Assembly (NCBI GenBank): GCA_951406725.2
Contig: OX597825.1
Coordinates: 17,794,001 to 17,858,000, forward strand
Direction: 5' to 3'
DNA from: Octopus vulgaris
Taxonomy: Eukaryota
Length of the DNA: 64,000 nt
Shown piece after piece: positions 1,915-60,824 of this stretch (positions are counted from its first letter, which is position 1; every line of letters starts with the position of its first letter). The notes below the pieces were generated by a model that was not told the DNA's origin, searched no databases, and worked only from the letters and a program-made list of their open reading frames with translations. Both the position numbers and the translations under genes were made by a program.

Positions 1915-2146
1915 CTATGTGTGTGTGTGTGTATGTTTGTGTGTCTGTTTGTTCCCCCAACATCGCTTGACAACCGATACTGGTGTTTTTACGTCCACGT
2001 AACTTAGCGGTTCGGCAAAAGAGACCGATAGAATAAGTACTAGGCTTACAAAGACTAAGTCCCGGGGTCGATTTGCTCGACTAAAGGCGGTGCTCCAGCA
2101 TGGCTGCAGTCAAATTATTGAAACAAGTAAAAGAGTAAAAAGAGAG
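1697..2146 (+). mobile_element. tRNA-derived SINE (family B) with internal (TA)/(TG) tract
   Basis: Head tggctgtgtggtaag...ggttcagtccc; colinear with copies at 6118-6515 and 51445-51850. Confidence 0.85.
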
Positions 2147-19073: not shown

Positions 19074-21943
19074 AGAGTGTGTTGCTCTCTACATTTCATG
19101 CGCACCTTGAAAGTAATGAAGAACCGAGATGACTGAGGAAAGACCATGGATTTTATGTGGCTGCGTAACTCCAAGCCAACGTTAATAAAAAAGATATTGT
19201 TAATCTGGCAATGTCCAGTTTTTATCACTGTTTATGGATATATTTTGTAATTTACCATATTGATTCCAAAGATTGTATGACGCCACTTGTGCAAAACTTG
19301 GCTGCTACCTCTAGCTTTTCATGTGAACGCTTCAGGAGTTTCTCCACGGCTCTTGTTCATTCGTTATCTAAATCCTAATGTATTGCTTCTAATCCTTAGT
19401 ATAACTCACAATAATCTAACTAACTCTTTCACAAATTCTCAGTGTTCTCTCTACTTTAAGACAGAATTAATCCCGTAATGCAACACCCAATACCGAAGGA
19501 CTACGTACAGGGAATAAACATACAAAGCCTATTCTTCCCAGTATTTAAACTCAGATGAGTGGATTAACTACGCATGTTTAAACTAATACCAGTTGCGCCT
19601 ACCTAACAAATGATCTTAAAATATACGCACAACCGAAGACTTGAGTCTGCCATTAAATCTGAAACCTCTGAGTCGCGATTGGTTACAAATACTCGCTTTT
19701 CGCCATCAAAACTAGATAATGAAGTTACAGTCAATAATGTATAACTTTACTTGAATCCATCAGTCTTTTAAACTTTAAACTAAGATTTATGGGAATATTA
19801 ATTAAGTGCGAGGCAAAACAATTAAGCAACAACCGGGTCAGTTTCAAGTATTCAGTTACATATTTCTAACATCTATGATCAGATCAGATCACAACCTTTG
19901 ATAAACTATCAGTCCAGGCCAACGACATTCTTTCTACAAAAATTTCTTTTACATTTCAGAAGTGCGTGTTTACAATATAAAATTACGGGGTTGTAACTGA
20001 GAATTTTTATCACTTAATTCTGAATTTCCTGTAACACAACGAAAATTCAAAGAACACGTGATATCGAAGAAAATTATATCTAGGTGTAAACCTCTTCAGG
20101 CTTCGTGCTCAATTCCAATATTCAAGAATTCGTGGACCCAAAGGGGTATGCGCTTAATATCCTATTGTGAAGCGCATAATGCTTGGATCAATGAAGACAC
20201 TGCTCCAAAATGATGGTTGTTTCCAGCAGTTATTTATATCCGCCCAACTCATTCTTGATATACACATGTTGTTCGAGCTTGCGCTTTTACCAAACGTGTG
20301 TTAGCAACACACATTTTTCTGTATACCGAACGGGATAAAGTGATATTTGAATACTATTCATAGCAGGTCAACCCACTCTTATTCCCTCCCTACATTCTGT
20401 CACCCTCCATTTTACTTGAAATGATGTCTTGGTAGAAGCATATAATTTACGACTATAATGTGTAGCTTTCATATATCGCTCATCTTAACAGGTTTCATTT
20501 ACTAATTGTTAATGATTTAAGTATTAAACAATTTCATCTTATATGGATAAGAAGGTACTATTTATTTAAGTTTATATTTTCATGCGGCGATCTGGTAGAA
20601 TCATTTGTGCATCGGAAAAACCATTAATCGAAATTTCTTCAAGTTCTTTACGTTCTGAAATCATTTTAAGTAGAGGCCAACTTTGCCTTTCATCCTTTCG
20701 GTTTCTGTGAAATAAATACGAGTGGAGCAGTCACTGGTATTCATATTAATTTGCTGACCTTGTGCCAAAATTAGAAAGAATTTATTTAAGTATTCATGGC
20801 TTTTTATCCAGTCATGTATTTAAACAGTTAATTCATTATTTATTGGAGTATTAATTTAGTCTAATCAAGCGGGCAATATAAATCATTTATTGGTTTCAGT
20901 CATTTGACTGCGTTGAAGGGTTTAGTCGAACTATTACGCCCAATGTTTATTTCTATTAATTTTAGTAATTATTCAATCAGAGGTTTGCCGAAATGCTAAA
21001 CTGCGGAGACATAAGACCAGCAGCGGATGTCAACCGCTTTCCAGGGTTGACCAAAAAAGACACTCATACACAAGAATACATACATAGATATAATGCATGC
21101 ATACATGCATACATGCATTCATACATATATACATGCACATATATGTAGTATTCTGTTTCGTGATGGTAAGTTCAACAAAAATGTACATCATCTGGTGAGA
21201 GTTGAATATATTTAATAAGCACAATACATGTTTTTATGTTTTACTATATACTTACATATATATACATACATATATATATATATATATATATGTTATGCGA
21301 TACTATATATATATATTTATGTGTTACTATATATATATTAAATATGTATCATATATATACATACACAAATGTATATCCATACGCGCATACGTGCATACAA
21401 ACACACACACACACACACATATATATATATGCATATATACATACATATGTATATATGGACACCGGATAATATTTTATATGTTGTCATCTCTTAAACTTCC
21501 TTTGCATCTATTCAATCAAATGTAATAAATTGATTTCAAATTTCGGCACAATGGTATCAAATTCGTGGGTGAGGTTAAGTCGATTACATCGACCCCCAAT
21601 GCTCAACATAGTAGTTATGTTATCGACCCAGAAAATTGAAAGGTTAAGGCGGAACAGGAACTCAGAATGTAAAAGCGGTCAATTTTGCTGAGCGTGATAA
21701 CACTTCTGCCTTAACTAAATGTATTAATATTGACGTCAACCCACGAACAATTACATAGGTTATCTTACAAATGGTATACACTTATATGTGTGGTTGTCAA
21801 AATGTCTTCTGGTTTTCTGTTTATTACTTTGCAAATTAAAAGTTTTAAATCCTCAATAATAATAATAATAATAATACTGGCAACAAACATGGACATCAAA
21901 CTCATCGTATGTCTATATATATTCTTTGTGTTTAAATACTTAC

Positions 21944-22093
21944 GTTCTTTTACACCACCTTCATGTCTTTTTTGTCGGTACCAAGTGACAGTTGGCTGAG
22001 GTATTCCTGTTACATTGCAAACTAAACTAACTGTTTCCCCTTCTCTTACGTTCGTATCTACGCTTGATAAGTGATCAATGATTTTCGGCGGCA
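21944..22093 (-). CDS. Same Ig exon, identical copy in left-hand duplicate block
   Basis: Identical by eye to 29477-29626, including both splice sites; GETVSLVCNVTGIPQPTVTW is an I-set/C2 Ig B-C strand motif. Confidence 0.9.
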
Positions 22094-25000
22094 CTGAAAG
22101 TAGAAAAAAGAAATGTTATTTTTTTCTGATTATCTGAAGGTAGTTTGTAGTTACATTTATTAAACTGAAAACGAAGAAAATACATTTTGAAAAAGAATGA
22201 TATTTGAAAATGTCACTCAATTGTTGTATAGTTTTATTTCGATATCAAAGCTAGAATCCATGTATATGAAGGTGAATATCAATGACAATTACTGTATCTT
22301 TGTTTGTCCCAGAACATGAATCTTAGAATAGAATTCGATATGAAATCATTCGGGTCTATTAACTACTTTCGTTTCTCACCAACAGTTTCGTTACAGGACA
22401 AACAGAGTTGTAATTTCTCTGTTATCGGGTCAGCCTAGGCAGTAAAGATTTTCTATTTCCGTTCTCATATAAATGCTTGGGTTTCGTGTATGGTCATAGT
22501 ATTTTTTTTCTTCAGATCTGATTAATTTTATTAGGCGTTGTTATGGCTGAGTGTTTCGTGTCAGTTTCATGTATGTTGAACTCAGCGCCAATGAGTGTCC
22601 TCTCAGAAACCATAATCCTTATTACAGTGGATATAAAATTGAATTTATAATTTAACATAAAGGATTTTCTCATAACAAAAAATGCTCTATGGTAGATTTG
22701 GCAAAGACATTTTTTGTAACTTACGAGCAACGTGTATGCATTCCACTATTATAAAACACAAAAATAATGAATGAAATCTTAAAAAAGATTAAATTGAAGT
22801 GAAATTATTTACTTGGATGAGTCTCTTATATATGAAAGAAACATATGAGTGTTTTCAACATTCATTATCATTATCATTTTTAGTAAATTACCTAAATGAA
22901 AGCTGGAAGTATAGAAAACAGTTTTTCAGTTTTTTGAATCTTCGGGAAATGAAAGAAGGTGAAAATTATTTATTTATCGGACAGAAACGTGGCCCAAATT
23001 TTAAAATTATTTCGCAGGTGCACATGAACCTGATCTCTTAAGCTCGAAGTAAGATTAAGTTTAACAGCTACAAACAAAAATAGATCTTCAGTCGGGATTC
23101 CACAGTGTGTTGTCTGCCAAATTTAAATCACAATACTATGCTATGTTAGGACTTATGTTGAACGCAGAAACGTAGTGATGAGTTCAGCTTCCATGCTGTA
23201 AGACTCGGCTATTATTGCCCCATAAAATTAATTGTATGTGAACAGAAACAACGTTTCCATATACGAATGTAGTATATTTATGTGGGAAAGTAAATAGAAA
23301 GTTTATACTCCCAAGGACTACCTGATAACAACAAAAATTTCCTTGTAAAATGGCCGTTGGTGAGAATTCAAATTATACGCCCGATTGACACTCTGCCAAC
23401 TCACTATTGATTTGTACTTTAGATACAAAATCCAAATTTATAGAGGCTCTATTGTTAGTTATATAGTTTTCTAAATGACTTTAGCGAGGCAAAGTATATA
23501 AATACCTTTCAGACAACAATCAAAACACAAGAACAAAACTCAGTCCGAGGGGAAGTAACTTCCGACTTCATAATGCTGTCTAATACTTTTTTTGAAAAGT
23601 ATTATGTTTATCCTAATAGCTGCCGGCTAATGAATACAGAGTAGATTAAAGCAAGAAGGTTTATGCGGTTTCTTTTATGGTAGGTCTCAAAGCAATTAAC
23701 CTTTTTTGCGAGAGAATTACTTTATATCACATACTGTCTTTTATATCTCACGCACATAGTTACACACTACTTTATTATACATTTTAAATGTGTGTGAATG
23801 TATGATTCATTCCCTGTATTTCTTCACCAAAGGTACACAATTTAGCTCTATACTCCAACATATCTTAATTCATTTCAAATTACACACTATATATGAGTGC
23901 ACTCACATACAAAACACTTTCCAAAGTACATATAGTAGTAAAAAAATATAGCATAATTGTGACCCAGTGAAACTTCATCATTACTTTCCACTGGTAAAAA
24001 GAATGAAACGACATTTTTCTCTCTTGGAAACTATTATTGATAAAATAAAATAACATCGACGATTGAAATAAATTTTTCGCGCAATGAATGAATATTTTAT
24101 TTGTTTACCGCTTAGAAAGATTTACCATGTAATTTCAAATGTCATGGTTTAGAAATAAGGAATTGAAATAGGTTTGAGAATTCCATTTATATGGAGATTA
24201 TATTTTTCAAAGCATTCTGTATTGTATTTTATTGTATTCCAAAGTATTCTGTATTGTATTTATTTCATATTTATATAAAAAAGTTATTAACATTATCTGT
24301 TGATAATTATGCAATGCGTTTTTTTTTAAATAGGCAAGGATATTAAATCAACTAACACCAAACTTAACCTACGTCCATGTTCACTTCCCATACGCTTTCA
24401 ATGTAAGAAGGTACTTAATACGCATCGTTGACGCCATTTATGTAAAATTTCAGTTCTAATTGATGATTTCATCGAGAGGCGATCTACGTCATCTATTACA
24501 GGTTTGGTAAAACTGAACTTCAGTTTTATCCTTGAATTTAGCACAACGTCTTCAATAGAGCGTGTGCATTTTACACTAAACTTCCAATAAGGTTTTCGTT
24601 GGTTCTAAACAGCTTTAAACCATTTCTAAATCTAAGACGACTGAATGAGTATATTCTGCGTCTACTTAGAAGTTCATAGCATAATTGGCAAATGACAACA
24701 TAAAGAGATAATGATATCTTAAATATCATAAAATATAAATCACAAAACGTACAATAATGAACAGAAATCATGCTACTATTAAGCTTAATTTCCGATAAAA
24801 ATTACAGGAACTGTAAATTCCATTTTGTATCGTATAACTTCCCTTTTACTTTCTGCTCATAAACATCCCGAAGCTCGCTATTAACTAGACAGGCGAATGA
24901 AATTCTACAGTTGTAAAACATTAACGTACATTTGTTAGTAATTTTGTCATGTTTTTCCTTCTTTCTCTCTAAAATAATACTATAATTTGCTTCAAGCATT

Positions 25001-25222
25001 TATGAAGATAGAAGTTATAGAATGCAACAAAAATAGAATTTGACAATTAAAACGGAAATATAAAAATACAAAATATTTAAGATACTAGGATGTCACTGGA
25101 GCCATATTAATACTAATTAAGTATGCCTAAGTTAATATTTCAATACATCCCAATGCCTTAAAATTGATTCTTAATGCGCCAAATATATTGCTTTCAATAT
25201 CCATGTTACCAAACATACACTA

Positions 25223-25445
<223 letters not shown>

Positions 25446-26378
25446 TATATATATATCATATAAGCAAGGTAACGATTTATATTAGAGAGTTCATATGTGT
25501 TGATCGTTTTATTTCAAACACTATTATTTCAAACTCCACAAAAATCAGCTGCGCACTTCATTTTTTAGAGAAGAGTAAAAGTTTAGTAATGAGGTCACTT
25601 GTTTTTTACCTTTTCTCCCTTCAAGGGAACTTTGTCAGATATAAGCATATTCATTTCCATTCATGGATACCCTGCTTCAATAGTATTAGGTACATAAAAA
25701 TGTTTTTAACAAATGCGGAGGAGAGTGTAAGACAGCTACACATACCCCAATGCTCAACTGGTACTCCTTTTATCGATCGCGATATGATGAAAGGTGAAAT
25801 TTGACATCGACAAAATTTGAACTCTGAACGTAAAGACGAACGAAATGCCGCTAAGTATATAGCCCGGCGTGCTAACGATTCTGCCAACTCGCCACCTTAA
25901 AAGTTTTCAATATTAAATGTATGTCTGCAGCAGTTGGGATTGATTTTTCCATGATTTTGGCAACCTCAGATTCAAACTTTCAAATTTATATTAAATTTCA
26001 TTTCAGATTCCATAGAATATGAAATGTTACTGAAATGAATGGAGATCCTTGGAGAAATAGAGTTTGAACTAATTCCAAACATAAATTTTAAGAAAAATAA
26101 AGTATGAGAATGGACACCATAAAGACAATTTTAATCCGTTAATACAACTGATTGACTGATTTTATGCATGGGCCTGTCTCTGAAGCGATTTATATGGTAA
26201 TGATCAAAATAATAGATTTGTTACACTACTGATAACTCCATCAGCGCGGTGTTCACAGTGGATAAATCAGATTTTGGAACGGCTCATTTTCTGCTGATTG
26301 ATATTATTGAAACCAATTTCATTTTATGAAATCAATTAAAGGCCACTGACAAAAAACACACTCAAACACCCACATCCT

Positions 26379-26465
<87 letters not shown>

Positions 26466-27451
26466 AAAAACAAAATGGGACAAGAACGCAACACATCCGA
26501 ACATGTAGGTGATACAAAAGGGGACAACAAAACATCCTGATAAGCGATACAAAGAAAACAAGGACGGGTCATTCGAAGTTTTCTTTACTCATTCAAGCAC
26601 CAGATCGCAATTTCGGTTGATTATTCTCGAGATTGCTCCAATCTGGCCAGCCCCAAGAATAATCTAAGCTAAGTGCATTAGATTCCTTGGAAGAAAGCAG
26701 CGAATGTATACAAAAGCGAGGACGGGAAAAAAACGGACAATGTTACACAAATATAATTACAATACAAAAACATATGAGTATATAGATACATGTGTATGTG
26801 TATTGCGCATTTAGGAAATATAATAAGTATATGTTATATAGCCTAGCATAGTAGATTATATATTTTAGCACTTATATTGATTTATATACGCTATTGACAC
26901 CATTTATACCCTAAATGTGTATATTGATTGCAAACGTAATCCCACACCATACCACTAGATGGTAATTAGTGACGAAAATAATGTCGTTAAAACTGTGTGC
27001 ACCACATCGTAACATCAGCAGAATTTAACATATCCCGAACAATTGTGTGTACTTTTCACTCTATGTATTTCACTGCTGTAATGAGTAAAAGTATTTGGTC
27101 ATCCAAAGTCGGAGAGCCACGGGATAAATTACCTGCATCAACTTGATCTAAAAGCAAGTAGTAATTTTACCTTGTCCTTATTCTTCACGTGCACGTTTTG
27201 AAAAGTGCAGTTCGATTTTCATTTTTTTTTTCAAAATTATAATGGAAGTGACAAAGGGGCATATTTGGCATATTTTTCTTTATGAGTTCAATAATGCAAC
27301 AACGAAATACAAAATGAAGGGAATAGTAATGTATGAGGATCCGATAAAAGCAGATGCCAGTATCAACAGCTGTTCCAGAAATTCCGAGCCGGAAACTTCA
27401 GCCTACAAAATGAGCCCTGTTCTGGAAGATCCGTAGAACTTAACTAGGACG

Positions 27452-27551: not shown

Positions 27552-35003
<7,452 letters not shown>

Positions 35004-37556: not shown

Positions 37557-37812
37557 ATGTTCACACTGACACGCTTAAGACAACATGCTGATCCACGTAT
37601 ATCTATATATATATATGTGTGTGTGTGTGCATGTGTATATACGCACAGGCACATATATAAATTCATACACACGCACACATAGACACACTCACACCTGCAT
37701 ACACATGCACAAACGCACACAAACACATACACACACATACATACACACACACACACACGTATATATATATATATATATAATCAAAATAAGCAACAAGGAT
37801 ATCCAGAAGTAA

Positions 37813-37861
<49 letters not shown>

Positions 37862-38081
37862 GTGTGTGTGTGTGTGTGTATGTATGTGTGTGTATGTGTC
37901 TGTGTGCGTTTGTGCATGTGTATGCAGGTGTGAGTGTGTCTATGTGTGCGTGTGTGCGCGCGTGTGTATAAATTTATATATGTGCCTGTGCGTATATACA
38001 CATGCACACACACACACATATATATATATATATAGATATACGTGGATCAGCATGTTGTCTTAAGCGTGTCAGTGTGAACAT
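37557..38081. repeat. Large local inverted duplication (~220-260 bp arms)
   Basis: atgttcacactgacacgcttaagacaacatgctgatccacgtat recurs as an exact reverse complement ending at 38081; the centre (37779-37816) is the terminus of the 10548 element family. Confidence 0.9.
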
Positions 38082-38777: not shown

Positions 38778-38844
<67 letters not shown>

Positions 38845-38847
38845 ACG

Positions 38848-39043
38848 GGGATGCACTTGTATAGAAAGTGACCTGAACTCAGATCGTGTGCTGGAACGAA
38901 AACAATTGCAGCGTGGAAGGTGTTTATAAGCCATTTAAGTAACACAAAAACCATTAGATTCACTTCAACGTTTAAATATTTTCAAAATATTTTCGTCGCT
39001 TTAAGACCGCGACCTGTTTACTGACAAAACACCGTGCTGCATC
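38848..39043 (-). mobile_element. Single arm of the 57676-57979 element family, between (TA)n tracts, with degenerate hammerhead-like motif (38980-39028)
   Basis: Shares aaacaattgcagcgtggaaggtgtttataagccattt...tttcgtcgctttaagaccgcgacctg; minus-strand core reads GUAAACA (G5 changed to A). Confidence 0.8.
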
Positions 39044-39044
39044 T

Positions 39045-57300: not shown

Positions 57301-57759
57301 CGGCCATTTGGAAAGATGCTATAAAAAATGACCGTTTTACAAAGGGAAATTACTGTGTGATTGACGGTTATTAAGACAAAAGAGATATTTGCATGACCGC
57401 AAAATAAGGGGAGGGAATCTTTCGTCAATCTAGTGAATGTTTATTAGTTGTTTATTATAGTTTGTTTATTATAGACGCATTTTGCTTAAATAACTGTCGT
57501 ATATTGTTGAGAAAATAATATACAAATAAATTATTTGCATAGATATTGCGCGCTAGCATTTTTTTCAATTAATCATATTTATAAATATATGTATAACATA
57601 TGGAGAGAGTAAATAATTATTATATATAATAGCATTTATTCCTTGGTGAGCTTATTAGCAATCGTATCACTATATAAACAATTGCAGCGTGAAATGTGTT
57701 TGTAAGCCATTTGAGAAACCCACAAAAGCCGTTCGATTCACTTCAACATTTAAGTTTAA

Positions 57760-57810
57760 TTTGTCAGAATATTTTCGTCGCTTTAAGACCGCGACCTGTT
57801 CACTGACAAA
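57760..57810 (-). ncRNA. Candidate minimal hammerhead ribozyme with G3:C8-swapped core
   Basis: UUUGUCA GUGAACA G GUCGC ggucuuaaa GCGAC GAA AAUAUU C UGACAAA: 7-bp stem I, 5-bp stem II, GAAA, palindromic AAUAUU helix III, UC site. Confidence 0.6.
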
Positions 57811-57845
57811 AATCTGTGCTGCATCCCTGAGATACAGCACGAATT

Positions 57846-57895
57846 TTTGTCAGTGTACAGGTCGCGGATTTTAGCGACGAAAATATTTTGACAAA
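57846..57895 (+). ncRNA. Mirror copy of the G3:C8 hammerhead-like motif (core A6 changed to U)
   Basis: TTTGTCA GTGTACA G GTCGC ggatttta GCGAC GAA AATATT T TGACAAA. Confidence 0.45.
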
Positions 57896-60824
57896 TTAAA
57901 CTTATATGTTGAAGTGAATCGAACGGCTTTTGTGTGTTTCTCAAATGGCTTATAAACACCTTCCACGCTGCAATTGTTTTCGATTCAGCACACGATCTCA
58001 GATCAAATCACTTGCTATGCGAGTACATCTCCTATCACTATATAATTAACAATTTAATATGATTTTATCTAAGAAAATAGAAAGCGAGCATAGGCTTGGT
58101 TACAATTTCCGGTACAAAATTAATATGAATGGCAAAGGAAATCGTCATTTAAGAGTCTTTCAGTTACTGTTGACAGTCATTTAATTAGTTTTGTGATCTA
58201 AGGAGTCCATGTGTAGGGAAGCAATTTGGATGCGTTTGGATAAAATAAAATGCAGCGTGGAAATGCCCCTTATTGAGGTGAGGTCTTGAAGCAGCTCGTT
58301 TGAATAAAGCTTTATCGTCATATAAATTTTTCTCATTACAGAGTAGAAATTACATCAAATATTCCTTCATTTGACGACAATTTGCATTTGGTACATTGTA
58401 ATGTTGTGTGGTCATTTATTTTAAAAGAGTATATGCTGTTTTAGTAACATCGCAATTAAAATACAAAATATATCCACTGTAGCATATTGAATGGAATTTC
58501 TTCAGTATCATTCACGTCATATGGGAAGGGATTTACTTCGTGCATAATTGCGACAGAAAAAAACTCTGTAGTAGTATGTTTAATACCTTTGTACAAAACG
58601 TTAATGCTTAATAATTCATTAATTTTGAGAAATTGTAGTGTGTTTGGTTCACTTTTGGAGAAAGTCATTTGAAGGATAACGTCATGTTGAGAAGCGAGCC
58701 AAAGGGAACAGCGACAGTCTTTTGAAATTCTTTGGTAATTTTTTCGGATGAGATATGCTAAGTTTTCAGTTCCTTGTGATTGGTAGCTGCAGTGTATCCC
58801 TCCATAATGGTGTAGGATGAATTTGGTTTTGCATGTGCGCCTTCTCAAAGGAAGTGGCGTCATGTAAAGTTGTAAAGTTAATCAAACGATATATTTTTGA
58901 AGTAGATCTGTCGATTTTAATCTCATAACTGTTATAAGAATTACACATGATTTCACAAAACCACAGATGAAAAAATATACACGGAAAATGTGCATTACAC
59001 ACTCACAAACACACTCACATACTTAGCACATCTTGCACAGGTATATATATATATGTATATATGTATATATATATGTATATGTGTGTATGTATGTATGTGT
59101 GTGTGTGTTTGTATGTATCTGCGTTTGTGCTTATATAGGTATGTGTGTATATATAAATATCTTGTCTGACAGATAAAGCAATGACAGTGATTTCATGTCT
59201 AATGTCATAAGAAATTATGACTAGCTTTGCTATAGCTTTCACAGTGGTATCCAACAATATTAAACAGACACAGACATTCATAGACACCCTCAGACACGTA
59301 TATATATATGAGCTCACAGACATACACGCACACTCTAATACGCACATACACATTTGCAATCACTTAATGTATTAAAGTAAACAAGCTATCAACACTCATT
59401 TATCAAAGACATTTATTCTGTCGAGAAATGTATTGGAATAACATATTCAGAATTAAAAACATGATGGAAGGATTGGAAACTTTTGACCCCCAGCCAAGGC
59501 AAAGTTCAATCTGGCCGAAATTATGTTCGATCACAATATACTTTGTGAAAACCTTTTTAAAATTGCTTCAAGACAACTGCATTAAAATGGCTTCCACTCT
59601 GATGGGGAATAAGTAGCACAAATAAATGTTTATGCTCTCCAACGTCAACCAAATACCAAAGATAAAATAACAAGTGTATATAGAGTAAGCGACAGAATAG
59701 ATACAATTAAATTATTTTTTCTGTCCAGATTTTATGTTTTCCAAAGCGCCAAACGTTCGACGTCCTAAAGATATTGATTAGCTAAAAGGATTTTGTTTCA
59801 CGTATTAATTTCCACAGTATATTTGAAGCGTAATACGGTGTTATCGTTTTCCTTGGGGAACGCTCTTAAGACAATATATATTTATATAATTACATGTTGA
59901 GAAGTGTATGTTTCCTGTGCCAGAAAGTAACAACTATGTTCAAAGTGTGTATATCAGTGTGTTCGTGTGTGTATGTGCATATGTTTGCGTATTTCTTTGT
60001 ATATTTGTGTGTTTTTGTGTAGGACTACTAAGTAATATTGTTCGTTCGCAATATATATATTCACACCTGAGTGTATGTTTCTCTTTATATTTTTACATTA
60101 ACGGAATGTCTATTGCGAGCAAAAATGTTTATTGCTACGGTAACATTATATAATATACAGTTTATTTTATAGATGTGAACTTTTATACTTTTCTGTTATA
60201 ACGCAACAAGTTTTTTTTTTTTTTTTTTTTTTTACTGAAGGAATATGAAAATTAGGGTTTCGAATAATAGTTAAAAGTGAATAACTATTGTTTGTAAAGT
60301 ATATGCGTGGTATTTATATTTTTCATACAAGGAAATACCAGCATTCCCAAAAGCTCTATAATCGATTCGGTTGGTTATGATGGTTTAAGCCAGTAAATGT
60401 AATCATTCAGTTACACATAGAAGACAGAAGCTGTATCACTATTAAGGAGGAATAAACATGAAAAATAAATGCTGAACGGGCGTAATGGAGATTCATCTTC
60501 CTTCTACAAACACAGCCATGGTACTTCTCATCGAGAGATTAGAAATAATAATATGTAAACGTTGCTTGCACTGCCAAAATCAATTTTGTCTCACAGTTTA
60601 CTTACATAACTAAAAACGTTAATAATCTTTGATTTTGTGTCTATTTTGATGTCTATTATAGCCATGTTACGCTCATGGTTATCTAGGTTATTAACGGAGG
60701 AAAACAAGTATAACAACACCTATACTGGGTCTGACCGAAGAATGAAGAGAATATGTTTGCGTTTAGAACACAGTGAGAGAGAATTGGAGAGAGATAGAAA
60801 AAAAGAAAGAGAAATGTTGTTATA

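Follow-up and report, generated by a model that had tools for sequence, protein, structure and literature searches.

A high-copy Octopus vulgaris repeat with a G3:C8 hammerhead-like motif, probably a non-autonomous Penelope-like element

A palindromic insertion of a high-copy repeat

The window analysed here is a stretch of 64,000 nucleotides (nt) from Octopus vulgaris (contig OX597825.1, positions 17,794,001 to 17,858,000 of the forward strand), and it contains, at 57676-57979, a 304-bp palindrome that carries on both strands a motif resembling a hammerhead ribozyme, with the tertiary pair 3:8 reading G3:C8. The arms of the palindrome are ~90% complementary, and its RNA fold (-217 kcal/mol, z -35) is more stable than those of all 100 shuffled sequences (0/100 equally stable). 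The inserted element itself is larger than the palindrome, however: it extends from 57678 to 58032, including a 55-nt tail found on one side only, and is flanked by a 13-bp target-site duplication (Table 1).

Direct reading of the sequence confirmed the minus-strand motif at 57760-57810 as it had been written: stem I is followed by G3-U-G-A-A-C8-A9, an extra G, a 5-bp stem II, GAAA, a palindromic AUAU, U16.1 and C17. In the plus arm the motif recurs with A6U, with a U instead of C17 at position 17, and with a stem II loop unlike that of the minus arm; the loops differ because the arms of this copy come from two loop-II subfamilies. The motif is thus present on both strands, as claimed, but the two occurrences are not independent, since the left arm repeats, in inverted orientation, the monomer of the right arm.

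When the 2.8-Gb genome was searched with the element at the DNA level, 2230 candidates were obtained (the best 40 were scored). The exact stem II pattern is matched 3537+3460 times genome-wide (0+1 for the reversed control pattern), the exact tail pattern 2700+2659 times (control, 0), and a core pattern left free at positions 3, 7 and 8 is matched 3955+3894 times (control, 2+4). The window motif is far above chance, and the palindrome belongs to a ~208-nt repeat, here called family A, that is present in thousands of copies. Its monomer is 208 nt long, with G3 at monomer position 25 and position 17 at monomer position 60, and the family is present in sequencing runs under five organism labels.

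Table 1. Coordinates (in the window) of the parts of the palindromic insertion and of a second copy of the same family
Feature	Position	Strand	Remarks
Target-site duplication (13 bp), left copy	57665..57677	+	identical to 58033-58045
Inverted, tail-less arm	57678..57825	-	monomer ~3-151, long-loop subfamily; by sequence comparison
Left-arm hammerhead-like motif	57762..57808	-	read from sequence, fold and family states
Left-arm stem I	57808-57804 with 57766-57762	-	
Left-arm core	G3 57803, C8 57798, A9 57797, extra G 57796	-	
Left-arm stem II	57795-57791 with 57781-57777	-	
Left-arm G12-A15.1 and C17	57776-57773; 57767	-	C17 private (family U17)
Junction of the two arms	57826..57828	.	palindrome centre; varies from copy to copy
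Direct arm	57829..57977	+	monomer 1 to ~148, short-loop subfamily
Right-arm hammerhead-like motif	57848..57893	+	read from sequence
Right-arm core	G3 57853, A6U 57856, C8 57858, extra G 57860	+	A6U private
Right-arm stem II, G12 and U17	57861-57865 with 57874-57878; G12 57879; U17 57888	+	
One-sided tail (55 nt)	57978..58032	+	presumably between two reverse-transcription start sites
Target-site duplication, right copy	58033..58045	+	identical to 57665-57677
Second, single-arm copy	38835..39044	-	~82% identical, core G5A, inside (TA)n

Insertion architecture and candidate mobilising enzymes

The anatomy of the insertions was read from the first 70 of the 5359 tail matches, all on contig C1, of which 63 loci were kept and seven dropped as duplicates (six sharing one composite, plus L079, a duplicate of L078); since the set is anchored on the tail, the 3' ends of the direct arms are fixed by construction. 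Seven loci (L072, L102, L103, L107, L108, L110 and L126) hold one two-armed insertion that is carried, together with its flanks, as a passenger in a larger repeat. Amplification of the palindrome as a unit was considered for these seven identical composites and rejected, because both flanks are shared and the composites therefore represent one event.

An inverted arm is present in 38 of the 63 insertions, and the remaining 25 consist of a single arm, so that the arrangement on two strands, which had been thought of as a designed self-silencing pair, is a by-product of insertion. Inverted arms stop at monomer 141-153 in 33 of the 38 cases. The 5' ends of arms range from 1 to 150 (47 of 101 arms begin at monomer 8 or earlier), and no sequence common to copies further upstream of the 5' end was found in the printed flanks of the sampled loci. 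(TA)n adjoins 42 of the 70 loci; a target duplication of 9-17 nt is seen in 23 of the 28 non-(TA)n loci, compared with 42 of 756 mismatched flank pairs. One partial tandem (L097) was found among the 70 loci. Arms of different loop type are joined in two out of 14 typed unbiased insertions (and in 14 out of 30 insertions selected by similarity), and the divergence between arms is 0.087 within one insertion (n=31) versus 0.123 between insertions. In the window copy a variant at 57713/57942 is common to both arms, yet it makes up <1% of the family depth and the arms are of different loop subfamilies, which suggests arm-to-arm conversion.

An inverted 5'-truncated copy, a one-sided tail (two fixed 3' ends), variable duplications and AT-rich or (TA)n targets are all features of insertion by Penelope-like elements (PLEs), and the insertion layout of the element is ordinary PLE biology. 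The predicted link to PLEs is upheld by the match of this layout, and of the motif features described below, to published PLEs. By analogy with PMC11167929, the 55-nt tail would be the span between two starts of reverse transcription.

Long terminal inverted repeats and frequent TA flanks could also belong to a miniature inverted-repeat transposable element or fold-back DNA transposon, with nested inverted repeats that mimic a hammerhead by chance, and the Rfam results would agree with this: none of the 15 matches of the element alone is a hammerhead (most are hairpin miRNA models, and all are below the gathering score), and no hammerhead match is found among the 150 listed of 209 matches for the window or among the 150 listed of 172 for four loci of the related families B and C described below. 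We give this explanation almost no credence: single arms, which make up 25/63, can have target duplications of their own and so contradict it, and variable truncation on the centre side, the one-sided tail, duplications of 9-17 nt and the conservation of unpaired core letters across families all speak against it.

Insertions of long and short interspersed nuclear elements (LINEs and SINEs) likewise show variable target duplications and 5' truncation, and by eye the antisense strand of the arm has a pair of words that resemble an A-box and a B-box. A SINE with tRNA-like boxes, mobilised by a LINE and inverted by twin priming, is nevertheless very improbable, as the element does not end in poly(A) or in a 3' repeat that belongs to it, the two arms are duplicates of one 3' part and no 5' part is inverted, two fixed 3' ends lie 55 nt apart, and the boxes are antisense to the polarity of truncation, with the B-box-like word altered in older subfamilies. 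A Helitron was dropped in view of the target duplications and single arms.

As to linked Penelope-like open reading frames (ORFs), the element contains none; autonomous PLEs are found elsewhere in the genome, and none of those examined shares the 3' end of the 208-nt mini-element. The search for a partner consisted of a GIY-YIG scan (best 150 of 6136 candidates) and one protein search (best 76 of 30320), and it revealed young autonomous PLEs with frames of 781 and 775 amino acids (aa) that have both RVT_1 and GIY-YIG matches. The 781-aa family (L161, 2245-4587 on the plus strand; L162, L163, L167, L168, L173 and L174) has an upstream overlapping frame, a (TA)n target, a hammerhead-like motif with U3:A8 (by eye) ~80 nt before the 3' end, and an optional tail of ~45 nt. 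In the 775-aa family (L285-L324) all of the 76 best-scored copies are 100% identical over the query, and on this evidence the family is very recently active; its hammerhead-like motif (by eye) has A17, and U4C together with a U10.1·U11.1 mismatch in 33 out of 33 full matches. Autonomous copies are also found head to head, with the tail on one arm in two (L316 and L319) of the three inverted loci among 10. In another locus (L151, ~2085-2125, plus strand) a single PLE 3' end, known from one copy, carries a hammerhead-like motif whose 3:8 pair, by eye, is A3:U8. Neither young autonomous family resembles the mini-element, whose PLE partner is therefore putative.

The hammerhead-like core and its sister families

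The exchanged pair of the window motif holds family-wide: G3 and C8 are each found in 61 of 65 family A arms (A6 in 64 of 65), and among the first 100 core matches listed, 90 have G3:C8 and none has C3:G8. The cleavage-site base of the family is not C17, as had been assumed from the minus arm; U17 is found in 80 of 81 arms and C17 in none, and U17 accounts for 99.8% of the depth in the DNA-like run X15. Both C17 and A6U are private to the window copy. As a G3-C8 variant is reported to be more active with G17 than with C17 (PMC3884650; data not shown there), the private C17 would not be expected to help cleavage.

The family A core is neither the CUGANGA nor the U3-A8 variant of the published minimal hammerhead ribozyme (min-HHR), and a Watson-Crick 3:8 pair is possible in it as G3:C8. 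U4 G5 A6, A9, G12 A13 A14, A15.1:U16.1 and H17 (here U) are the majority state in family A and identical in families B and C; an extra nucleotide after A9 (here G) and a G10.1-C11.1 pair closing stem II are present. Helix III is short and palindromic in families A and C, and non-palindromic in most copies of B. In family A the palindrome of this helix reaches 10 nt, so that A13 and A14 could become paired (co-fold -3.8 versus -0.2 kcal/mol); by the fold model, dimers would be favoured, though at the risk of a misfolded core. The extra nucleotide, G10.1-C11.1, the palindromic helix III and the U-rich and AU-rich flanks match the PLE min-HHR (PMC4209133), of which an extra base after A9 is a published feature, in line with the earlier statement on natural hammerheads. 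The proposed hammerhead origin of the motif is supported; a non-canonical ribozyme family apart is not, the motif being a form of the PLE min-HHR already known.

Family B, found with a pattern excluding G3 and C8, is older and has identical stems. With a further pattern free at positions 3, 7 and 8, 57 matches were obtained, among them those of family C, which is related to A and old, and which has G3 in 13 and C8 in 13 of its 19 copies (both in seven); G3:C8 is fixed in family A and also found in this older relative. When family B was searched by its downstream part alone, against pattern bias, 1767 candidates were obtained (the best 40 were scored), and among the loci kept at >=60% identity (a mild bias) the hammerhead module is retained in 18 out of 29. 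Family B (e.g. L228, L245 and L256-L284; at least 1767 candidates) forms inverted pairs, with eight opposite-strand second matches among the best 40. Leaving out positions 3, 7 and 8 and the loops, where the families differ, 31 of 31 core and stem positions are identical between A and B, versus 94 of 128 (73%) downstream (Fisher p 4e-4), a sequence comparison that supports a conserved PLE min-HHR.

The stem covariation that had been asked of the genomic copies is seen at one pair: the outer pair of stem I in family B is U-A in 18 copies and A-U in nine (p 3e-4), exchanged between two subfamilies that are linked across ten positions, which amounts to a single evolutionary event; stem II is invariant and the loops vary. 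A search for double changes in stem II gave 15 matches, four of them from a possible fourth, very old family (L329, L331, L334 and L337, near 1500) in which stem I and the start of the core are unchanged, stem II differs, position 17 is C in three of the four, and U3 goes with A8 or G8.

The 3:8 states of family B (n=51) are U·G (24), C·A (12), C:G (5), U:A (5) and others (5). Since lineages have been amplified with U3·G8 and C3·A8, a Watson-Crick 3:8 pair is not required, and the claim that it is kept for catalysis is weakened. The same sister subfamilies bear on the original prediction of an active ribozyme family, in which the exchange would be compensatory and single-arm transcripts would cleave efficiently as dimers, processing the element RNA. 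It can draw on a Watson-Crick G3:C8 kept in A and C across ~27% downstream divergence, on the invariance of all base-specific core positions, on the palindromic helix III, on the frequency of U17 among published min-HHRs (PMC4209133, supplement), and on the partial restoration of PLE hammerhead cleavage in vitro by C3G/G8C (PMC11167929), in agreement with the earlier statement that the pair can be partly rescued by swapping. We consider this explanation unlikely, given the sister subfamilies and the U4C and U10.1·U11.1 changes of an active autonomous family. Moreover, no start at the cleavage site (monomer 61) is seen among 101 arms (two start within 59-63, where ~1.9 are expected under uniform truncation), so the inserted template RNAs were uncut, and as copies are single or head to head, most of them lack a tandem partner in cis.

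Could the motif instead be a dead relic, whose hammerhead shape persists only as a signal, for binding or for folding, to the PLE protein, and in which G3 and C8 are two unrelated fixed mutations? Three 3:8 states on one scaffold, one of them Watson-Crick, the degenerate cores of active autonomous families, the dispensability of cleavage in vitro (PMC11167929) and the success of Naiads without canonical hammerheads (PMC8557442) would all fit. This is possible but doubtful, because the varying positions (3, 7 and 8) are exactly those that the hammerhead structure tolerates, and U4, G5, A6, A9, G12-A14 and A15.1:U16.1 are constant between lineages, which a retained catalytic fold fits better than a generic hairpin signal.

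It has also to be considered that the hammerhead might be detuned and serve mainly as an RNA dimerisation module. Selection would then keep every base-specific core residue while 3:8 varies from lineage to lineage (G:C, U·G and C·A on one scaffold), and the helix III palindrome would pair two template RNAs on one dimeric PLE enzyme, which would carry both and build the head-to-head insertion. We regard this as improbable: Naiads insert inverted copies without canonical hammerheads (PMC8557442), and family B, with its non-palindromic loop, forms inverted copies as well.

Interpretation and relation to published systems

The reading that we favour, at a probability of about 0.68, is that a non-coding repeat of 208 nt, likely a non-autonomous PLE, was inserted here twice, head to head, to give the palindrome, and that its G3:C8 motif is likely a genuine min-HHR, a real natural variant that, as predicted from its sequence, would probably cut weakly. 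A PLE reverse transcriptase-endonuclease acting in trans would nick both strands ~12 bp apart and prime reverse transcription on each. One cDNA would start at the end of the tail and the other at the inner start site, and the two would be joined at their far ends, so that the palindrome would be built anew at each insertion, sometimes from the RNAs of two subfamilies. The hammerhead fold would be kept by selection, which would tolerate changes in the core at bases 3 and 8 alone; cleavage would be slow, given the swapped pair and a 2-bp helix III that needs a dimer, and perhaps helped by protein, and uncut RNA would be the normal template.

If a two-armed copy were read through, both motifs would be hidden in a 150-bp duplex, and this duplex would likely be edited by ADAR, as a consequence and not as a purpose. 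The role of ADAR substrate predicted for the hairpin is supported in some of the data: an A>G/T>C excess is found in the RNA-like runs X1, X4, X2 and X10, but the genomic copies show no significant sense-strand excess of A>G. The frequency of A>G at 57943 is 6.4% in X1, 10.9% in X4, 8.9% in X2 and 37% in X10 (contigs, without matched DNA), compared with 0.19% in X15 (which has the same organism label as X1 and X4), 0.04% in X16 and 0.02% in X17, and T>C at 57951 follows the same pattern. This is consistent with A-to-I editing of the hairpins by ADAR on both strands. Frozen marks of ADAR in genomic copies are not significant, neither in the first set (A>G 50/4061 versus T>C 36/4406, p 0.065) nor in the second (15/2860 versus 20/3057, p 0.61).

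Several observations weigh against the favoured reading. An autonomous element with a matching 3' end was not found among the candidates scored; the ends of the two active families show no similarity to the mini-element, as BLAST found only embedded mini copies and local alignments were equalled by 11 to 189 of 200 shuffles. Both active autonomous families end in (TA)n in every copy inspected, and 28 of the 70 mini loci do not. The rare variant in both arms (57713/57942) is not explained by two independent templates unless there was arm-to-arm conversion, and the absence of starts at the cut site may equally mean that cut RNAs are never packaged. Few evolutionary events (four lineage states) underlie the conservation of the module, and stem II was fixed in the pattern that revealed family C. 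As to editing, the run X5 (also guessed to be RNA) has 0.03% A>G at 57943 and no editing-type excess; the RNA nature of the runs is a guess, with no run so recorded, and the signal combines the copies of the whole family.

Hammerheads occur in nearly all canonical PLEs; their cleavage is poor, and the sole in vitro system does not need them. The thousands of G3:C8 copies in this genome, together with the U3·G8 and C3·A8 sisters on the same stems, form an allelic series that bears on selection for cleavage versus fold, and pattern searches for CUGANGA overlook whole high-copy families of this kind. Thousands of 150-bp hairpins from PLE-type insertion are likely a sizeable source of editing substrates in the animal.

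Elsewhere in the window, 20023-27451 and 27552-35003 form a 7.5-kb tandem duplication (98.9% identical) that spans a gap of 100 N and is possibly an assembly artefact; each half has an immunoglobulin-domain exon on the minus strand (21765-22115 and 29307-29648; Ig_3, E 4e-11). A ~525-bp inverted repeat at 37557-38081 is largely microsatellite-rich.

Among published systems the motif is closest to the PLE min-HHR (PMC4209133, Cervera and de la Pena 2014), with which it shares the extra nucleotide between A9 and G10.1, G10.1-C11.1, a palindromic 15.2-16.2/loop 3, a U-rich 5' and an AU-rich 3' flank, thousands of dispersed copies and pairs on opposite strands (100-700 bp apart in the published cases). 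The published min-HHR has its own covariation of 3:8, as U3-A8, and low activity in vitro. Family A differs in its G3:C8 core, and the sister subfamilies in U3·G8 and C3·A8; the extra nucleotide is G here and H in the published consensus, stem I is longer (5-8 bp), and an ORF is absent.

The insertions resemble those of PLEs, for which inverted 5'-truncated copies, a one-sided tail, a bias to (TA)n and non-autonomous derivatives (PMC8557442, Craig 2021), inverted pLTRs (pseudo-long terminal repeats) with 8-10-bp duplications (PMC3846280, Arkhipova 2013), and a protein that cuts and extends both strands, with two reverse-transcription starts defining the tail (PMC11167929, Frangieh 2024), have been described. 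The head-to-head inverted 5'-truncated copy, the one-sided tail, duplications near 10 bp, AT-rich or (TA)n targets and a hammerhead upstream of two reverse-transcription starts are common to both. Unlike them, the mini-element is a non-coding unit of 208 nt with a fixed 5' end, its tail is 55 nt instead of 30-40 nt, and its partner enzyme is inferred. The MRC1-type elements of Chlamys (PMC8557442) are likewise short and non-coding and are proposed to borrow PLE machinery. The same proposal has been made for the short, non-coding animal non-LTR (long terminal repeat) retrozymes, which carry type I hammerheads (PMC7229834; bioRxiv 10.64898/2026.07.22.740005; see also PMC6765202 for retrozymes). 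Retrozymes, however, have head-to-tail tandem arrays, canonical active hammerheads and circular RNAs, whereas family A copies are single or head to head (save the one partial tandem) and have a non-canonical minimal core.

The tertiary pair exchanged in family A is also exchanged in the natural U3-A8 variants (PMC3088659, Perreault et al. 2011; PMC4209133) and in engineered C3G/G8C hammerheads (PMC11167929; review PMC8495972); the partial rescue is that of the engineered double mutants, and PMC11167929 also describes protein-assisted cleavage and insertion in vitro without cleavage. In the searchable literature, whose coverage is incomplete and whose figure-only supplements may hide examples, we found no natural G3:C8 hammerhead, and the pair appears there as an engineered rescue alone (PMC11167929; PMC8495972). 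The contribution of this locus is one of scale, together with a series of 3:8 states that a single scaffold carries within one genome: unlike the engineered pair, the G3:C8 of family A is natural and fixed in ~7,000 arms.

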